Virus genome (UHGV): UHGV-0233466
Length of the DNA: 22,749 nucleotides
Reading direction: 5' to 3' (one strand)
Origin: a virus
Shown here: in pieces, positions 3,512 to 21,915 of the stretch
Position numbering within the stretch: the first letter of the stretch is position 1
Layout of the letters: each line of letters starts with the position of its first letter
Notes under the pieces: generated by a model
Database searches by the model: none
Told to the model about the DNA's origin: nothing
Seen by the model: only the letters and a program-made list of their open reading frames with translations
Position numbers and translations under genes: made by a program

Positions 3512-4983
3512 CAGATACAGCGTTATCTCCTGAAGAGCAGTTGATCGAGGATATTGCAGGGTTCACTCACGATCCGCTTGGCTATGCCCTCTATGCGTTC
3601 CCATGGGGGGAAGAGGGGACTGAACTGGCACATGCCACCGGCCCACGTCAGTGGCAGGCTGATGCGTTCCGAGAGATACGTGATCACCTGCAGAATCCAG
3701 AGACGCGCTATCAGCCGCTTATGCTGGCACGCGCTTCTGGTCACGGTATTGGTAAATCCGCATTCATCTCAATGCTGATCAACTGGGGCATGTCCACTTG
3801 CGAGGATTGTAAGGTCGTGGTGACCGCCAACACCGACAACCAGCTACGAACGAAGACCTGGCCGGAAATTATCAAGTGGTCGAACCTTGCTATCACGAAA
3901 GACTGGTTTACCTGTACCGCTACCGCGATGTACAGCAATGACCTAGGGCACGACAAGCGGTGGCGGGCTGACGCAATACCCTGGTCTGAGCACAACACCG
4001 AGGCATTCGCCGGACTACACAACGAGCGCAAACGCATCATCGTGGTGTTTGATGAAGCGTCGAACATTGCGGATCTGGTGTGGGAAGTTGCCGAGGGTGC
4101 GCTTACGGACGAAGACACTGAGATTATTTGGGTGGCGTTCGGAAACCCTACACGTAACACCGGGCGTTTTCGCGAATGTTTCCGCAAATATAAACACCGC
4201 TGGAAAACTGCGCAGATTGACAGCCGGACGGTGGAAGGCACTAACAAACAGCAGTTGCAGAAATGGGTTGATGACTACGGGGAAGACAGCGACTTCGTTA
4301 AAATCCGTGTGCGTGGCATATTCCCTGATGCATCTGAATTGCAGTTTATCCCTACCGGTCTTACTGACGAGGCAATGAAACGGGTGGTAACCGCTGCGCA
4401 GGTTGCACATGCTCCGGTGATAATCGGCGTTGACCCGGCATACTCCGGCGTTGATGACGCTGTGATATACCTGCGGCAGGGGCTACACAGTAAGGTGCTG
4501 TGGACTGGCAACAAGACTACCGACGATCTGATTATGGCGAAGCGTATCGCTGACTTTGAAGACCAGTATCAGGCTGACGCGGTGTTCATCGACTTCGGTT
4601 ACGGAACCGGTTTGAAGTCAATCGGTGACGGCTGGGGTCGTACATGGCAACTTGTTCCGTTCGGTGGCGCGTCTACTGACCCGCAGATGCTCAACAAGCG
4701 TGGGGAGATGTTCAATTCATGCAAGACATGGCTGAGGCTGGGCGGCATGCTGGATGACCAGGAAACAGCAGACGACCTGTCGGCGGCAGAGTACAAAGTT
4801 CGAGTGGACGGTAAAATCGTTATCGAACCGAAGGAAGATATCAAGGAGCGGCTTGGGCGTTCACCGGGTAAAGGCGATGCGCTACTGCTGACGTTTGCGT
4901 TCCCTGTGTCTAAGCGTCTGCGAATTCCCGGGCAGCAGAACCAGCAAGGCAAAGCCATCACAGACTATGATCCTTTTGCATAA
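3508..4983 (+). CDS. terminase large subunit (491 aa)
   Basis: GTG start at 3508 overlapping the terS stop, AGGATGG upstream; Walker A-like GHGIGKS near the N-terminus, acidic nuclease-domain motifs near the C-terminus (GVDPAYSGVDD); size and position. Confidence 0.85.
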   Translation: MTDTALSPEEQLIEDIAGFTHDPLGYALYAFPWGEEGTELAHATGPRQWQADAFREIRDHLQNPETRYQPLMLARASGHGIGKSAFISMLINWGMSTCEDCKVVVTANTDNQLRTKTWPEIIKWSNLAITKDWFTCTATAMYSNDLGHDKRWRADAIPWSEHNTEAFAGLHNERKRIIVVFDEASNIADLVWEVAEGALTDEDTEIIWVAFGNPTRNTGRFRECFRKYKHRWKTAQIDSRTVEGTNKQQLQKWVDDYGEDSDFVKIRVRGIFPDASELQFIPTGLTDEAMKRVVTAAQVAHAPVIIGVDPAYSGVDDAVIYLRQGLHSKVLWTGNKTTDDLIMAKRIADFEDQYQADAVFIDFGYGTGLKSIGDGWGRTWQLVPFGGASTDPQMLNKRGEMFNSCKTWLRLGGMLDDQETADDLSAAEYKVRVDGKIVIEPKEDIKERLGRSPGKGDALLLTFAFPVSKRLRIPGQQNQQGKAITDYDPFA

Positions 4984-5006
4984 AAAAGCCCGCGAATCGG
5001 CGGGCT
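4981..5006 (-). terminator. intrinsic terminator for the leftward 140-aa gene (may act in both directions)
   Basis: 7-bp stem AGCCCGC/GCGGGCT (4987-4993 / 5000-5006) with 6-nt loop; minus-strand transcript ends in UUUUUU (complement of 4982-4987). Confidence 0.55.
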
Positions 5007-5010
5007 GATT

Positions 5011-5022
5011 GTGACATGTCAC
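5011..5022. repeat. 12-bp perfect palindrome GTGACATGTCAC, copy 2 of 2
   Basis: Read directly; immediately downstream of terL and its terminator hairpin. Confidence 0.85.
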
Positions 5023-5026
5023 GGCG

Positions 5027-5449
5027 TTAGAAGGTTATTTTATCGAATGCGGCGTTGATTGCCTTGGCGTCCTGCTCAGCACCAACCACATCAAGTAAAG
5101 ATCTTTTACTAAGCACTTCAGCCAGGCATTGTAACTTCATGTTGTATAAGTTTTCGCGCATGTAATCATCATCACTTTTTTCTTTGGCGTATACAGCGCG
5201 AGAAATATCAAACACATTGCCTTTTTCCATTTCAGTTTTCTGCGCTGAAATCCAGTCATGGCAAGTAACTCCTATTCCATGGTCATCGCTAAGCGTTAAC
5301 CCGGCAAGTCGCTCACCTGGAATTGCTTCACAAAGCATTTCATTTCCTGCAAAAACACCATAAAAAATTGAATCATCACCCTGAACAATGCGTACATATT
5401 TGCACGGCCATTCATTTAGATATTTAGCTAGCATGTCGGCTGTTTTCAT
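5027..5449 (-). CDS. hypothetical protein (140 aa), orphan leftward gene inside the rightward late region
   Basis: ATG at 5449 (minus) preceded by AAGGTGA; clean 140-codon frame; lower GC than flanking terminase and portal genes; no TM segment or recognisable motif. Confidence 0.6.
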   Translation of the reverse strand: MKTADMLAKYLNEWPCKYVRIVQGDDSIFYGVFAGNEMLCEAIPGERLAGLTLSDDHGIGVTCHDWISAQKTEMEKGNVFDISRAVYAKEKSDDDYMRENLYNMKLQCLAEVLSKRSLLDVVGAEQDAKAINAAFDKITF

Positions 5450-5460
5450 GATCTCACCTT

Positions 5461-5484
5461 AAAAAAATGCCCGGCGACCCGGGC
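5461..5484 (-). terminator. intrinsic terminator on the minus strand abutting the SD of the 140-aa gene (attenuator-like)
   Basis: GCCCGG-GUCG-CCGGGC hairpin (5469-5484) followed on the minus strand by AUUUUUUU (complement of 5461-5468). Confidence 0.55.
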
Positions 5485-5560
5485 GAACTGGAAGCAATGA
5501 GTTATGCCTTCCGTGGCTGTACTGGTTTACAGCATGAAGTCATCGCAATGGCGTCCTGCT

Positions 5561-5604
5561 GTAAAAAGGGCGGTAATAGTCCTTCAAGGGAAACTATCAC
5601 CGCC
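5561..5604 (-). terminator. intrinsic terminator on the minus strand downstream of the tRNA
   Basis: 12-bp stem (5569-5580 / 5593-5604, one G-U pair) with 12-nt loop, followed on the minus strand by CUUUUUAC. Confidence 0.45.
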
Positions 5605-5647
5605 AAGCACCTGGAACTTCTGGCATCACGGTCCTTAGGCGTGATTC

Positions 5648-5724
5648 TGGCGTGGCATGCAGGATTCGAACCTGCGACCAACCGCTTAGAAGGCGGTTGC
5701 TCTGTCCAACTGAGCTAATGCCAC
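5648..5724 (-). tRNA. tRNA-Arg (anticodon TCT, decodes AGA), 77 nt with encoded CCA
   Basis: Hand-folded cloverleaf: acceptor GTGGCAT/ATGCCAC, D-arm GCTC...GAGC, anticodon stem ACCGC/GCGGT with loop CTTCTAA, T-arm GCAGG-TTCGAAT-CCTGC, discriminator G, CCA. Confidence 0.85.
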
Positions 5725-6151
5725 AACGCTGAGAGCACTTAGCCTGTTAAGGCGCCACACTTTGTCGCGGCTCCATAAATGCTCTCATCGTTGTACCCTC
5801 GTCTCTTCCGAGGCGTCACACCGAATCGCCGGGATGGTGAATCCCCGTGCGCGGAATAAAACCGCTCGACTTGCACATTCCGGCTACCTGGTTCGTTTGC
5901 CCGAGCAAGGGAGGGTGCCCCTTAAACGTATCCAGACCGCTATCGGCGCATGTGCCATACGCCGTACTGCTCAAAATAAAAGCTCACTCCACCTGTTCAA
6001 TTTAACGACAAGCCAGTCAGGTTAATAACCGGAATGAACCATTTGCTTACCTGAAAGGTAATAATTAGTGCGTTAAATGTCAACTATCTACGATAAATAA
6101 ATCATATGTGGTTAAATTGGTAATAATTTAATTTCGTACGGAGTCATTGAT

Positions 6152-6358
6152 ATGTGCATGGGTAGCTCACCGTCAGTGCCTGCAACACCAGAAGTTCAGG
6201 CAGCACCACAGGAGCAGGATGCCGCCGTTGTTGATGCCCGCGACGAAGAAACTCGTCGCCGTCGCGCTGCTGCTGGTCGTAGTTCTACGCTGCTTACCGG
6301 TTCTCAGGGTGACACATCAACCGCTAATACCAGCGGTAAAACGCTGCTTGGTCAGTAA
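6152..6358 (+). CDS. small virion protein resembling T7 gp6.7 (68 aa)
   Basis: ATG 6152 with GGAG 8 nt upstream; N-terminal MC... and Ala/Gln/Glu/Thr-rich composition recalled as similar to T7 gp6.7; immediately upstream of the portal gene; the overlapping 6147 frame has a TTG start and no SD. Confidence 0.45.
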   Translation: MCMGSSPSVPATPEVQAAPQEQDAAVVDARDEETRRRRAAAGRSSTLLTGSQGDTSTANTSGKTLLGQ

Positions 6359-6372
6359 CCGGAGTCATTGAA

Positions 6373-8052
6373 ATGGCGGAAACAACTAAAGAGCGATTGA
6401 ACAAACAGTTCGCACAACTTGAAAGCGAGCGTCAGTCGTTCGAGCCGCACTGGCGCGAGTTGAGTGATTACATCAACCCGCGTGGTTCCCGCTTTCTGAC
6501 TTCTGAGGTTAACCGTAACGATCGACGCAATACACGCATTATTGATTCGACCGGGACTATGGCGGCGCGCACTCTTGCCAGCGGCATGATGTCAGGCATA
6601 ACAAGCCCCGCCCGTCCGTGGTTTCGCCTGGCTACGCCAGATCCTGAAATGATGGACTATGGCCCTGTTAAGTTGTGGCTTGAGGCAGTTCAGAACCGCA
6701 TGAACGATATGTTCAATAAGTCGAATCTCTACCAGTCTCTTCCGCAGTTATACGGAAGCCTCGGCACATACAGCACTGGTGCAATGGCGGTGCTGGAGGA
6801 TGACGAGGACATCATTCGCACAATGCCATTCCCGATAGGCAGTTACTACCTGGCTAACTCACCTCGTGGCAGTGTGGACACCTGTTTTCGCAAGTTCTCT
6901 ATGACTGTTCGTCAGCTTGTTCAGGAGTTCGGGCTAAATAACGTCAGCGAATCCGTAAAAAGCATGTGGGAAAGCGGCACCTACGAGAAGTGGATTGAAG
7001 TGATGCATTCGGTTTACCCGAACATTGACCGCGATACATCGAAGCTGGATAGCAAGAACAAGCCATTCAAATCGGTTTATTACGAGGTTGGTGGCGATAA
7101 CGACAAGTTGTTGCGTGAGTCCGGATTCGATGAGTTTCCAATTATGGCTCCGCGCTGGGAAGTTAACGGCGAAGATGTTTATGGATCATCATGCCCGGGT
7201 ATGCTGGCGCTTGGACCTGTTAAGGCATTGCAGCTTCTCCAGAAGCGCAAGTCGCAGTTGATTGATAAAGCCACCAATCCGCCGATGGTTGCTCCGACTT
7301 CCCTCAAGAATCAGCGCGCCTCCCTTCTTCCTGGCGACATCACGTATATCGATCAGATTACTGGTCAGGATGGTTTCAGGCCTGCTTATCTGGTTAACCC
7401 CAGTACAGCAGATTTGGTGGCAGACATTCAGGACACTCGTCAAATCATTAACAGCGCCTACTTTGTCGATCTGTTCATGATGTTGCAGAACATCAATACC
7501 CGCTCGATGCCTGTGGAAGCGGTGATCGAAATGAAAGAAGAAAAACTTCTGATGTTGGGGCCGGTTCTGGAGCGCCTGAACGACGAATGTCTTAATCCTC
7601 TCATTGACCGCTCTTTCTCGATGATGGTGCGTAAAAACATGCTGCCGCCACCGCCAGACGTGATGGAAGGTATGCCCCTGAAGGTCGAATACATTTCCGT
7701 CATGGCTCAGGCGCAGAAGTCTATCGGCCTGTCCAGTCTGGCGTCCACGGTTAACTTCATTGGTCAACTTGCGCAAGCGAAACCAGAAGCTCTCGACAAA
7801 CTCAACGTTGATCAGGCGATCGATGCATTCGCTGATATGTCCGGAGTGTCTCCAACCGTCATTGTTCCGCAGGAACAGGTTGAGCAGGCTCGCCAGCAAC
7901 GGGCACAGCAACAACAGCAGCAACAAATGATGGCGATGGGGATGGCGGCGGCACAGGGTGCCAAGACGCTAAGCGAAGCTAAAACTTCGGATCCGAGTGT
8001 TTTGTCAGCTATGGCGAATGCAGTTAGTGGTCAGGGTGGGCAATCACAATGA
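6373..8052 (+). CDS. portal protein (559 aa) with Gln-rich C-terminal tail
   Basis: Size and position between terminase and scaffold/capsid; GGAG SD; C-terminal QQRAQQQQQQQ tract. Confidence 0.7.
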   Translation: MAETTKERLNKQFAQLESERQSFEPHWRELSDYINPRGSRFLTSEVNRNDRRNTRIIDSTGTMAARTLASGMMSGITSPARPWFRLATPDPEMMDYGPVKLWLEAVQNRMNDMFNKSNLYQSLPQLYGSLGTYSTGAMAVLEDDEDIIRTMPFPIGSYYLANSPRGSVDTCFRKFSMTVRQLVQEFGLNNVSESVKSMWESGTYEKWIEVMHSVYPNIDRDTSKLDSKNKPFKSVYYEVGGDNDKLLRESGFDEFPIMAPRWEVNGEDVYGSSCPGMLALGPVKALQLLQKRKSQLIDKATNPPMVAPTSLKNQRASLLPGDITYIDQITGQDGFRPAYLVNPSTADLVADIQDTRQIINSAYFVDLFMMLQNINTRSMPVEAVIEMKEEKLLMLGPVLERLNDECLNPLIDRSFSMMVRKNMLPPPPDVMEGMPLKVEYISVMAQAQKSIGLSSLASTVNFIGQLAQAKPEALDKLNVDQAIDAFADMSGVSPTVIVPQEQVEQARQQRAQQQQQQQMMAMGMAAAQGAKTLSEAKTSDPSVLSAMANAVSGQGGQSQ

Positions 8053-20793: not shown

Positions 20794-21357
20794 TTAGCAT
20801 GATTCAGGGGAAACCCCAATATTAAATATGAGTGACTCCCCTGAATCAGCATAATAATGTAATATTATTGACTTACGTTGTTTTCTTGCTTCGTAGAATA
20901 AACGCTCTTGCGGCGATAATTTGTGAAAACTGCCGGATGCACAATATATGTTTTTTAACTTTTCGCTGGTTGCTTTTATTGTATCTTCTGAGATGTATTT
21001 TAGGTATTTATCCGTATAGATGTTGCTACTATAAGAAATTAATGTTTTGCTGTTGTTGTGATGTATTGTATTTTTATCGTTGAAGTCTGTATTTTTATTT
21101 ACTGTCATTAGGTTTTTAATGATTACATGTAATACAATAGTCTCCCCATCATCAATTCCATATTTGATGTCATAGTCAGTATATTTATTTGTTATACCGC
21201 TTCCTGATAGCGGCACTATGTACTCTGAGAAAAATGAGTTTGCCGCGTGACCATCAAGAGCAATAGCTGTTTTTTTGTGGTAAAAATAAAACAATATTGA
21301 GAGAGTCAAAATAATAGCGACGCCTAATGCAACCTTTAATATAGATATGGTTTTCAA
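20794..21357 (-). CDS. AT-rich membrane-anchored protein (about 187 aa from a TTG start with a strong SD; alternative ATG at 21384); positional analogue of a superinfection-exclusion gene
   Basis: AGGAG (complement of 21365-21369) 7 nt upstream of TTG at 21357; N-terminal hydrophobic helix ISILKVALGVAIILTLSILFYFY followed by an Asn/Tyr/Lys-rich soluble domain; GC far below the neighbouring virion genes. Confidence 0.5.
   Translation of the reverse strand: MKTISILKVALGVAIILTLSILFYFYHKKTAIALDGHAANSFFSEYIVPLSGSGITNKYTDYDIKYGIDDGETIVLHVIIKNLMTVNKNTDFNDKNTIHHNNSKTLISYSSNIYTDKYLKYISEDTIKATSEKLKNIYCASGSFHKLSPQERLFYEARKQRKSIILHYYADSGESLIFNIGVSPESC
20800..20848. repeat. 12-bp perfect inverted repeat TGATTCAGGGGA / TCCCCTGAATCA with 25-bp spacer, at the junction of the virion module and the AT-rich leftward module
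   Basis: Read directly; overlaps the 3' end of the leftward membrane-protein gene; contains an inner GGGG-AAA-CCCC hairpin. Confidence 0.8.
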
Positions 21358-21447
21358 AATATCGCTCCTTGTTGTAACATACATCAGTAATGTGGCGTTT
21401 TTCAATTGTATTAAAGACGTGTAATATGTACACGCCTTTTGTTCTTC

Positions 21448-21879
21448 CTATTCAGGTATTTCAATTCCAAAACCATCTGCATCCCATGAGTTTTCACAGA
21501 TGATGTAACCTAGTTCATTGAGCTTATTAAATGTTTTTTCAAAGATGATCTGGTAATCATTATCTGCAAGTGATTCCAGTTCAAGGTCATTAAGGTTTAT
21601 ATAAAAACTTGTATGTCCAAGTGTTATTTTCTTATTAATTTCATTAAAGGTTCTTTTGAAAATAATATTTGATATTTCATGCCGTGCATTGTTTGCAATA
21701 ATTTTTGCTTCATAAGCAGAAATTACGTCATCTTCATGAATATCTTTCAGAAAGCTGGTGTCAAGACGTTGTACTATTTCAGCGTTCATTGATCGCTTAT
21801 TGGCTTTTGCAGAAATTTCTATTTTTTCTTTTACTTCAACGGGAAGTCTGATCCTTAGTTGTGGATCTTCTCTGCTCAT
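21448..21879 (-). CDS. Mnt-type ribbon-helix-helix repressor fused to an uncharacterised C-terminal domain of about 95 aa (143 aa total)
   Basis: N-terminus MSREDPQLRIRLPVEVKEKIEISAKANKRSMNAEIVQRL closely parallels recalled P22 Mnt (MARDDPHFNFRMPMEVREKLKFRAEANGRSMNSELLQIV); ATG at 21879 with GGTGAAG upstream; the track ORF extends further to a TTG start. Confidence 0.65.
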   Translation of the reverse strand: MSREDPQLRIRLPVEVKEKIEISAKANKRSMNAEIVQRLDTSFLKDIHEDDVISAYEAKIIANNARHEISNIIFKRTFNEINKKITLGHTSFYINLNDLELESLADNDYQIIFEKTFNKLNELGYIICENSWDADGFGIEIPE

Positions 21880-21915
21880 GTTCTTCACCAAATATTGAGT
21901 TACTTGCAATGATTG

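Follow-up and report, generated by a model that had tools for sequence, protein, structure and literature searches.

A leftward gene between the terminase and portal genes of a Uetakevirus: exchangeable cargo of a conserved socket, with a possible counter-defence role

Between the terminase and portal genes of the phage genome analysed here (22,749 nt, called the window below), a single gene of 140 codons, ORF140, is read leftward. Our analysis establishes that it is a genuine gene under selection, that it occupies a socket with conserved flanks, that the contents of this socket are swapped among related phages, that the protein is built of modules, and which gene families are its neighbours. 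Our preferred reading, which falls a little short of probable, is that ORF140 is a counter-defence cargo cassette placed in a dedicated expression socket, and that it would be expressed in the lytic cycle rather than in the lysogen.

The phage is a Uetakevirus, that is, a podovirus of the epsilon15/phiV10 type. Positions 4400-6500 of the window are 97% identical to Escherichia phage vB_EcoP_PAS61 over 99% of their length, and 98% identical to phiV10 over just 78% of it, in two pieces that both leave ORF140 outside. The features of this region are the following.

5027-5449, minus strand: ORF140, ATG start, 140 aa plus stop; acidic (pI 4.8), 15.7 kDa; phrog_4846
5006..4987, minus strand: T3, terminator hairpin with U6, 20 nt past the ORF140 stop codon
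5010..5023, no strand: palindromic 14-mer TGTGACATGTCACG, left boundary of the cassette; second exact copy at 2792-2805, upstream of terS
5460-5453, minus strand: Shine-Dalgarno (SD) sequence AAGGTGAG, spaced by 3 nt from the ATG at 5449-5447
5461..5484, minus strand: T2, hairpin GCCCGG-GUCG-CCGGGC (5484..5469) with AU7, the U-run ending directly at the SD
5526..5565, minus strand: imperfect leader hairpin with 18-nt arms, nearly invariant in six members of the genus
5564..5604, minus strand: T1, 14-bp hairpin with U5, just downstream of the tRNA
5648-5724, minus strand: tRNA-Arg(UCU), 73 bits with the Rfam tRNA model
6047..6061, no strand: site TTACCTGAAAGGTAA, of the form TTACC-N5-GGTAA, annotated as a repressor-binding site in the epsilon15 record
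6055..6083, minus strand: candidate leftward promoter, -35 TTGACA at 6083-6078, 17-nt spacer, -10 TACCTT at 6060-6055

The initial annotation had described a leftward gene with its own SD and intrinsic terminator, lower in GC than its neighbours, close to a tRNA gene and alone in its orientation within the late block, and in all these respects it was right. The ORF call and a dN/dS of 0.14 to 0.26 against nine divergent alleles (dS up to about 1) show that the gene is real and that purifying selection acts on it. Its GC content is 0.409 (GC3 0.355), compared with 0.541 (0.602) for terL and 0.515 (0.580) for the portal gene, and a sliding GC profile dips to 0.43. From terS (2837) to the end of the 1004-aa gene (20782), ORF140 is the sole opposite-strand gene, all remaining minus-strand ORFs of this interval being nested within longer plus-strand genes. 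The tRNA-Arg gene is co-oriented with ORF140 and lies 198 nt upstream.

Elsewhere in the window, two leftward genes (20794-21405 and 21448-21909, both minus strand) follow the 1004-aa gene; the second encodes an Arc-like ribbon-helix-helix protein (PF03869, E value 1e-14) and the first is a 203-aa ORF for which Pfam gave no match. The early accessory genes upstream of terS (117-2796) include those for Ead/Ea22-like, DUF551 and DUF4752 proteins, and a 113-aa ORF at 2455-2796 contains four AGA codons. An 83-aa plus-strand ORF (5467-5718; p04 in phiV10, phrog_4647) runs antisense across the tRNA-Arg gene and both terminator hairpins upstream of ORF140, and phrog_4647 is almost certainly a family of spurious ORFs.

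The gene is not the orphan that it had been called. It matches phrog_4846 over its full length (E value 7.7e-87, residues 1-140 on profile positions 1-140 of 140), and among 5.8 billion proteins its homologues fell into 92 clusters at 90% identity, all from Enterobacteriaceae (Escherichia, Salmonella, Citrobacter, Klebsiella and Enterobacter), all labelled 'hypothetical' and none bearing a name. A profile search of 1.84 billion representatives produced 32 matches, all of them to ORF140's own family or to single modules of it; with so few additional matches in an exhaustive search, the family is narrow. Of 5426 complete E. coli genomes, 134 carry it, in every case on the chromosome. Nearly all of its members reside in prophages, and wherever the context was checked they are located between terL and the portal gene. 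The ORF is intact and of full length in 31 such slots and in 115 E. coli genomes.

Homology searches thus placed ORF140 in a family, while searches among known domains and structures returned nothing: neither Pfam nor the PADLOC defence-protein models contained a family matching at E values up to 1, the profile of the family had no match in the PDB at E values up to 10, and no functional label came out of the Pfam, PADLOC and PHROGs scans. Nor did we find any long hydrophobic stretch or transmembrane segment (GRAVY -0.23), in keeping with the earlier statement that the protein has no recognisable motif or membrane-spanning segment. With just 16% acidic residues, a reading of ORF140 as a DNA mimic is unconvincing. 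In the literature, we found no mention of phrog_4846, of the protein accession or of the peptide, and no functional test of the family.

AlphaFold2, run with the family alignment and on monomers, predicts two modules with a disordered acidic linker between them (residues 82-89), at a pLDDT of 80 overall and 90 within the N-module. The N-module (about residues 1-78) would be an alpha/beta domain in which a helix and three strands are followed by a long ordered loop, where the conserved D55 and G57 are located, and by a closing helix, and the C-module (about residues 85-140) is predicted to form a helical hairpin over residues 92-136. Both modules also exist outside this arrangement. The N-module is found alone, and duplicated within a 305-aa protein; the C-module forms proteins of 61-74 aa on its own, one of which directly adjoins Acb4 in phage BUCT554, and it also occurs behind an unrelated N-terminus. 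Two further modules, X and Y, take part in the chains N+X, N+C+X and N+C+Y+X, the last in a 258-aa Citrobacter protein. A word-index search with the N-module returned short fragments and nothing else, and a search for the X-module in phages gave eight weak matches, to hypothetical proteins. Tad2, Acb4 and Sequestin, all of them sponge families, are described as shuffling their small modules like beads (bioRxiv 10.1101/2025.07.12.664507); the shuffling seen here resembles that pattern by analogy, ORF140 itself matching none of these families.

The slot that houses ORF140 extends from terL to the small gp3 gene preceding the portal gene, and across the epsilon15/phiV10-like genus it nearly always contains one or more leftward genes. 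It is occupied by p03 in phiV10, by p50 in epsilon15, by three genes in Enterobacter phage Tyrion and by two in BUCT554; E. coli prophages carry ORF140 homologues there, and in Klebsiella prophages a PF13876 gene comes immediately after the ORF140 homologue. In an alignment of six phages from three host genera, the boundaries of the slot are sharp and conserved. At the left end comes the hairpin of the terL terminator, then the 14-mer, then the stop codon of the cargo; on the right, the start codon is followed on the plus strand by GATCTCACCTTAAAAAAATGCCCGGCGAACCGGGC, which reads on the minus strand as a GC hairpin, U7, SD and ATG. The SD of ORF140 is part of the conserved right flank (CAT-GATCTCACCTTAAAAAAATGCCC on the plus strand).

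For a census of the slot, 147 loci anchored on terL and the portal gene were collected from a species-representative genome set, from IMG/VR and from loci retrieved earlier, and 122 slots could be extracted. Their contents, leftward wherever a gene is listed, were as follows.

Acb4-like gene alone: 38 loci
Acb4-like gene with something else: 6 loci, recounted under the partner
ORF140 family alone: 26 loci
ORF140 family and Acb4-like gene, directly adjoining, in Klebsiella prophages: 4 loci
ORF140 family with an extra C-terminal module: 1 locus
ORF140 C-module, alone or with other genes: 6 loci
ORF140 N-module fused to a Tad2-like domain: 1 locus
Membrane/coiled-coil proteins, two kinds: 17 loci
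113-aa protein with no assigned family: 5 loci
115-aa beta-rich protein: 2 loci
HNH endonuclease: 1 locus
Empty slot with a 39-nt relic, in close relatives: 4 loci

Acb4-like genes are thus the commonest cargo (44 of 122 slots) and the ORF140 family is the second most frequent (31 of 122), among at least 12 cargo types; a DUF551 protein also figures in this heterogeneous collection. In more distant relatives (from Pseudomonas, Sphingomonas, Burkholderia and others), the slot measures 277-890 nt and contains no leftward gene. Because four close relatives have an empty slot and in the distant ones the portal region comes directly after terL, ORF140 is not needed for virion assembly. Related phages without the gene do exist, then, and the earlier description of ORF140 as 'inserted' holds to that extent; it fits less well with the fact that, genus-wide, the slot nearly always contains some leftward gene. 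ORF140 is an acquired and exchangeable accessory cassette with a deviant composition.

The four empty slots (L094, L082, L085 and L128) retain an 8-codon relic ORF, MKYEFDGF*, and in epsilon15 a similar one, MKDEFDRF*, stands behind the Acb4-like gene (L003, 2150-2190). In both, the first and last residues recall those of ORF140 (MK...FDKITF*), a likeness that suggests recombination or deletion at the ends of the genes, and the relics look like scars of cassette deletion or exchange. The membrane-plus-coiled-coil cargo consists of two unrelated proteins, of about 272 and 361 aa. The former, in L127 (4581-5471, minus strand) and nine similar loci, is encoded by an ORF that overlaps the terL stop codon by 4 nt; loci with the latter include L031, L026 and L027. 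Such proteins may be exclusion or abortive-infection factors, and their PADLOC matches were disregarded as generic to coiled coils.

The identity of the other occupants is what points to a function. The phiV10 p03 product, used as a positive control, matches PF13876 with an E value of 6e-35 (120 bits), and PF13876 corresponds to Acb4, a family whose founder is the anti-CBASS cyclic-dinucleotide sponge of SPO1 (bioRxiv 10.1101/2024.12.30.630793; 10.1101/2025.07.12.664507). Acb4 is carried by 585 E. coli genomes. The Acb4 proteins p03 and p50 (121-123 aa) share with ORF140 the slot, the strand and the regulatory flanks, and Acb4 directly adjoins an ORF140 homologue in Klebsiella prophages. They differ from it in that Acb4 is a characterised family of cyclic-nucleotide sponges to which ORF140 has no sequence similarity, PF13876 being absent from its Pfam matches at E values up to 1.

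Tad2 (PF11195, DUF2829), a family of anti-Thoeris sponges, also occurs in this slot, as a stand-alone 98-aa protein in one prophage (locus L148). In E. coli PF9285, moreover, the slot gene encodes a 168-aa chimera (WP_250205060). Its first 75 residues share 71% identity with residues 1-75 of ORF140, and they continue in frame into a Tad2-like domain (PF11195 at E value 1e-23) that matches the solved Tad2 chains 8SME, 8V3E and 9EIB at E values of 1e-11 to 1e-14. ORF140 itself lacks a Tad2 domain, PF11195 being absent from its Pfam matches and the family profile finding no PDB chain at E values up to 10. The fusion was encountered in one of the 5426 genomes, and no full-length match to it exists among the 5.8 billion proteins searched. 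It may be an accident of recombination; the chimera shows that cassettes recombine with each other, not that a fusion was designed by selection. In the P22-like phage IME10, a Tad2-like and an Acb4-like gene are neighbours in the interval that separates the lysis genes from terS, and the C-terminus of the Acb4-like protein is almost identical to that of phiV10 p03. This arrangement and the shared C-terminus show that the Uetakevirus slot exchanges genes with a typical anti-defence locus.

By its context, the slot has the character of an anti-defence accessory locus, with variable cargo between conserved flanks, Acb4-like genes in 44 cases, and Tad2-like domains both alone and fused. That ORF140 shares its socket with Acb4 and Tad2, adjoins the first and has its N-module fused to the second points to a counter-defence protein. 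Among the functions that the initial annotation had listed for such a gene, anti-defence is thus the one that the context would favour. The cargo is not exclusively of this kind, however, since it comprises the roughly 17 membrane/coiled-coil loci, an HNH endonuclease and small unassigned proteins.

The third sponge family, Sequestin (PF21825), is a short alpha-helical protein often fused to Tad2 or Acb4. The C-module of ORF140 is like it in being a predicted helical hairpin of about 55 residues with stand-alone forms of 61-74 aa and fusions to small modules, a likeness limited to size, secondary structure and genomic habit. Neither ORF140 nor the stand-alone C-module proteins had a Pfam match at E values up to 1, in a copy of Pfam that may not contain PF21825.

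The regulatory layout of the slot bears on when the cargo would be made. T2, with its A/U-run and the SD, is present in 105 of the 122 slots irrespective of the cargo, and its stem varies in a compensatory manner (GCCCGG/CCGGGC, GCCCAC/GTGGGC, GCCCGC/GCGGGC). At the other end, T3, just after the terL stop codon, terminates the leftward unit. The leader hairpin is kept in epsilon15, although that phage has no tRNA. A scan of positions 4900-6400 against Rfam gave the tRNA alone, with DicF-like and Trp-leader-like matches far below threshold. Among the Arg codons of the genes of the window, 45 of 391 are AGA, concentrated in the tail genes, which fits a role of the tRNA in the lytic phase. A pseudo-tRNA or disrupted tRNA-like sequence takes the place of this tRNA in Klebsiella and some E. 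coli relatives (L012, about 7700-8000; L017, 3428-3542), and epsilon15, Tyrion and BUCT554 have no tRNA at the corresponding place.

No sigma-70-like promoter was found between the tRNA and the start of ORF140, even at 8 of 12 matches, in a lenient consensus scan, a method blind to atypical promoters. The same scan gave a single good site upstream of ORF140 on the minus strand, TTGACA-17-TACCTT, whose -35 box and spacing are kept in eight of nine aligned phages from four host genera. Its -10 box falls within the TTACCTGAAAGGTAA site. The epsilon15 record annotates repressor sites of this form ahead of four genes (terS, gp3, the tailspike gene and a RuvC-like one), and three more beside the repressor gene; 'repressor' is here the depositors' label, and promoter and repressor site are both predictions. 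In the window, sites of the form TTACC-N5-GGTAA are located at 2883-2897, 2901-2915 and 6047-6061, at the start of the terS and gp3 operons, positions that would imply direct control of the late operons by the repressor. The site at 6047-6061 may also serve a rightward promoter instead of the leftward one. In relatives, such sites also precede the tailspike gene and the nin-like region. The ZX5 paper contains no detail on operators.

Two other conserved elements were observed. The two TGTGACATGTCACG copies bracket the terS-terL operon, and the motif was found in all 15 loci searched, from four host genera; CRP was rejected as its binder, the spacing of the half-sites being wrong for that protein. 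An invariant block of about 30 nt, CATATGTGGTTAAATTGGTAATAATTTAAT (about 6111-6140), just upstream of the gp3 ribosome-binding site in nine phages, contains 7-nt inverted arms (TTAAATT/AATTTAA) and may be a control element of the late operon.

Taken together, we propose the following scenario for the socket. Epsilon15/phiV10-like phages keep a fixed arrangement between terL and the gp3-portal operon which, read leftward, starts with a candidate promoter overlapped by the annotated repressor site, followed by a leader with the tRNA-Arg gene, then by two terminator-like hairpins that would attenuate read-through into the cargo, and then by the fixed SD. A fixed terminator and the palindrome close it downstream, and recombination in the conserved flanks would exchange the coding cargo. 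The leftward unit (leader, tRNA-Arg, attenuators and cargo) would be silent in the lysogen and fire on infection or induction, yielding little cargo product in comparison with the tRNA. Viral immune-signal sponges are short proteins whose homo-oligomers bind a signalling nucleotide in pockets at the interfaces. ORF140 could act against immunity in one of two ways, by binding an immune signal as a small oligomer or by inhibiting an immune protein of the host. Both its time of expression and its anti-defence role we infer from this layout and from the company it keeps.

A bolder version, possible but on the unlikely side, is that ORF140 founds a new family of immune antagonists with an N-terminal fold not seen before, and that the N, C, X and Y modules are independent anti-defence units, shuffled together with Acb4 and Tad2 in a repressor-controlled, terminator-attenuated socket. 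If this were true, the other unassigned cassettes of the socket would constitute a list of further antagonists or exclusion factors.

The slot could also be merely permissive for small non-essential genes, ORF140 being a lytic accessory protein unrelated to immunity that modulates, for instance, host physiology, transcription, translation, phage packaging or tRNA use. This we regard as rather unlikely, though worth serious consideration: the HNH endonuclease, the DUF551 protein and several unassigned families make the cargo heterogeneous, the gene is co-oriented with a tRNA suited to AGA-rich tail genes, and ORF140 has no similarity to known immune antagonists. Yet the commonest identifiable cargo belongs to immune-signal sponge families, with which the modules of ORF140 are adjacent or fused, and the combination of fast cassette turnover with strong purifying selection inside the cassette would be typical of arms-race genes.

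More doubtful still is the reading of ORF140 as a gene of lysogenic conversion, expressed from the prophage and protecting the lysogen (by superinfection exclusion or defence) or otherwise benefiting the host. In lambdoid phages, morons (the concept of Hendrix and Juhala) are extra genes placed between neighbours that adjoin each other in some relatives, and they have a deviant composition and a terminator of their own. ORF140 is like them in all three respects, the phage is temperate, nearly all members of the family are found in prophages, and some slot cassettes are membrane/coiled-coil proteins of a kind often seen in exclusion systems. The 'acquired moron' of the initial annotation is to this extent well founded: the cassette is exchangeable, deviant in GC and provided with a terminator. 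What ORF140 does not share with morons is a promoter of its own, none being found in our scan; instead, a terminator hairpin abuts its SD, its flanks are conserved in the genus and common to unrelated cargo, and its likely promoter bears an annotated repressor site. The absence of a promoter, the terminator at the SD and the repressor-annotated site over the upstream promoter argue against a classical moron, and the sequence in this way argues against autonomous expression from the prophage and for expression on infection or induction. Moreover, ORF140 is acidic, soluble, devoid of a transmembrane segment and without a PADLOC match, and its identifiable slot-mates belong to counter-defence families. 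Finally, it is very improbable that ORF140 is a decaying or non-functional remnant, too little expressed because of the two terminator-like hairpins that separate it from the tRNA: cassettes do get deleted, as the 8-codon ORFs of the empty slots indicate, but the low dN/dS over such divergence, the many intact full-length copies, the conserved SD and the pLDDT values all run against this.

As counter-defence cargo, ORF140 would find itself in a familiar type of location. Known phage counter-defence proteins are few compared with bacterial defence systems, and most were found by chance or through guilt by association. Phage 'accessory regions' that were screened for counter-defence genes (bioRxiv 10.1101/2023.04.06.535777; PMC12373910) are like the slot in having variable content between core genes, small genes with fast turnover, and known counter-defence genes among the cargo. 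The main texts of both papers do not discuss epsilon15/phiV10-like phages, epsilon15 appearing only in a reference list.

The slot described here is a compact and sharply bounded hotspot in common temperate phages of E. coli, Salmonella and Klebsiella, where two validated sponge families alternate with some ten uncharacterised cassettes. ORF140, whose N-domain is modelled with confidence and has no structural relative for its predicted fold, appears a good candidate for a new anti-immunity protein. Assaying ORF140 and its slot-mates against panels of defence systems would be cheap and could yield new families of inhibitors, and the socket itself would represent an unusual design for the dosing and timing of phage accessory genes.
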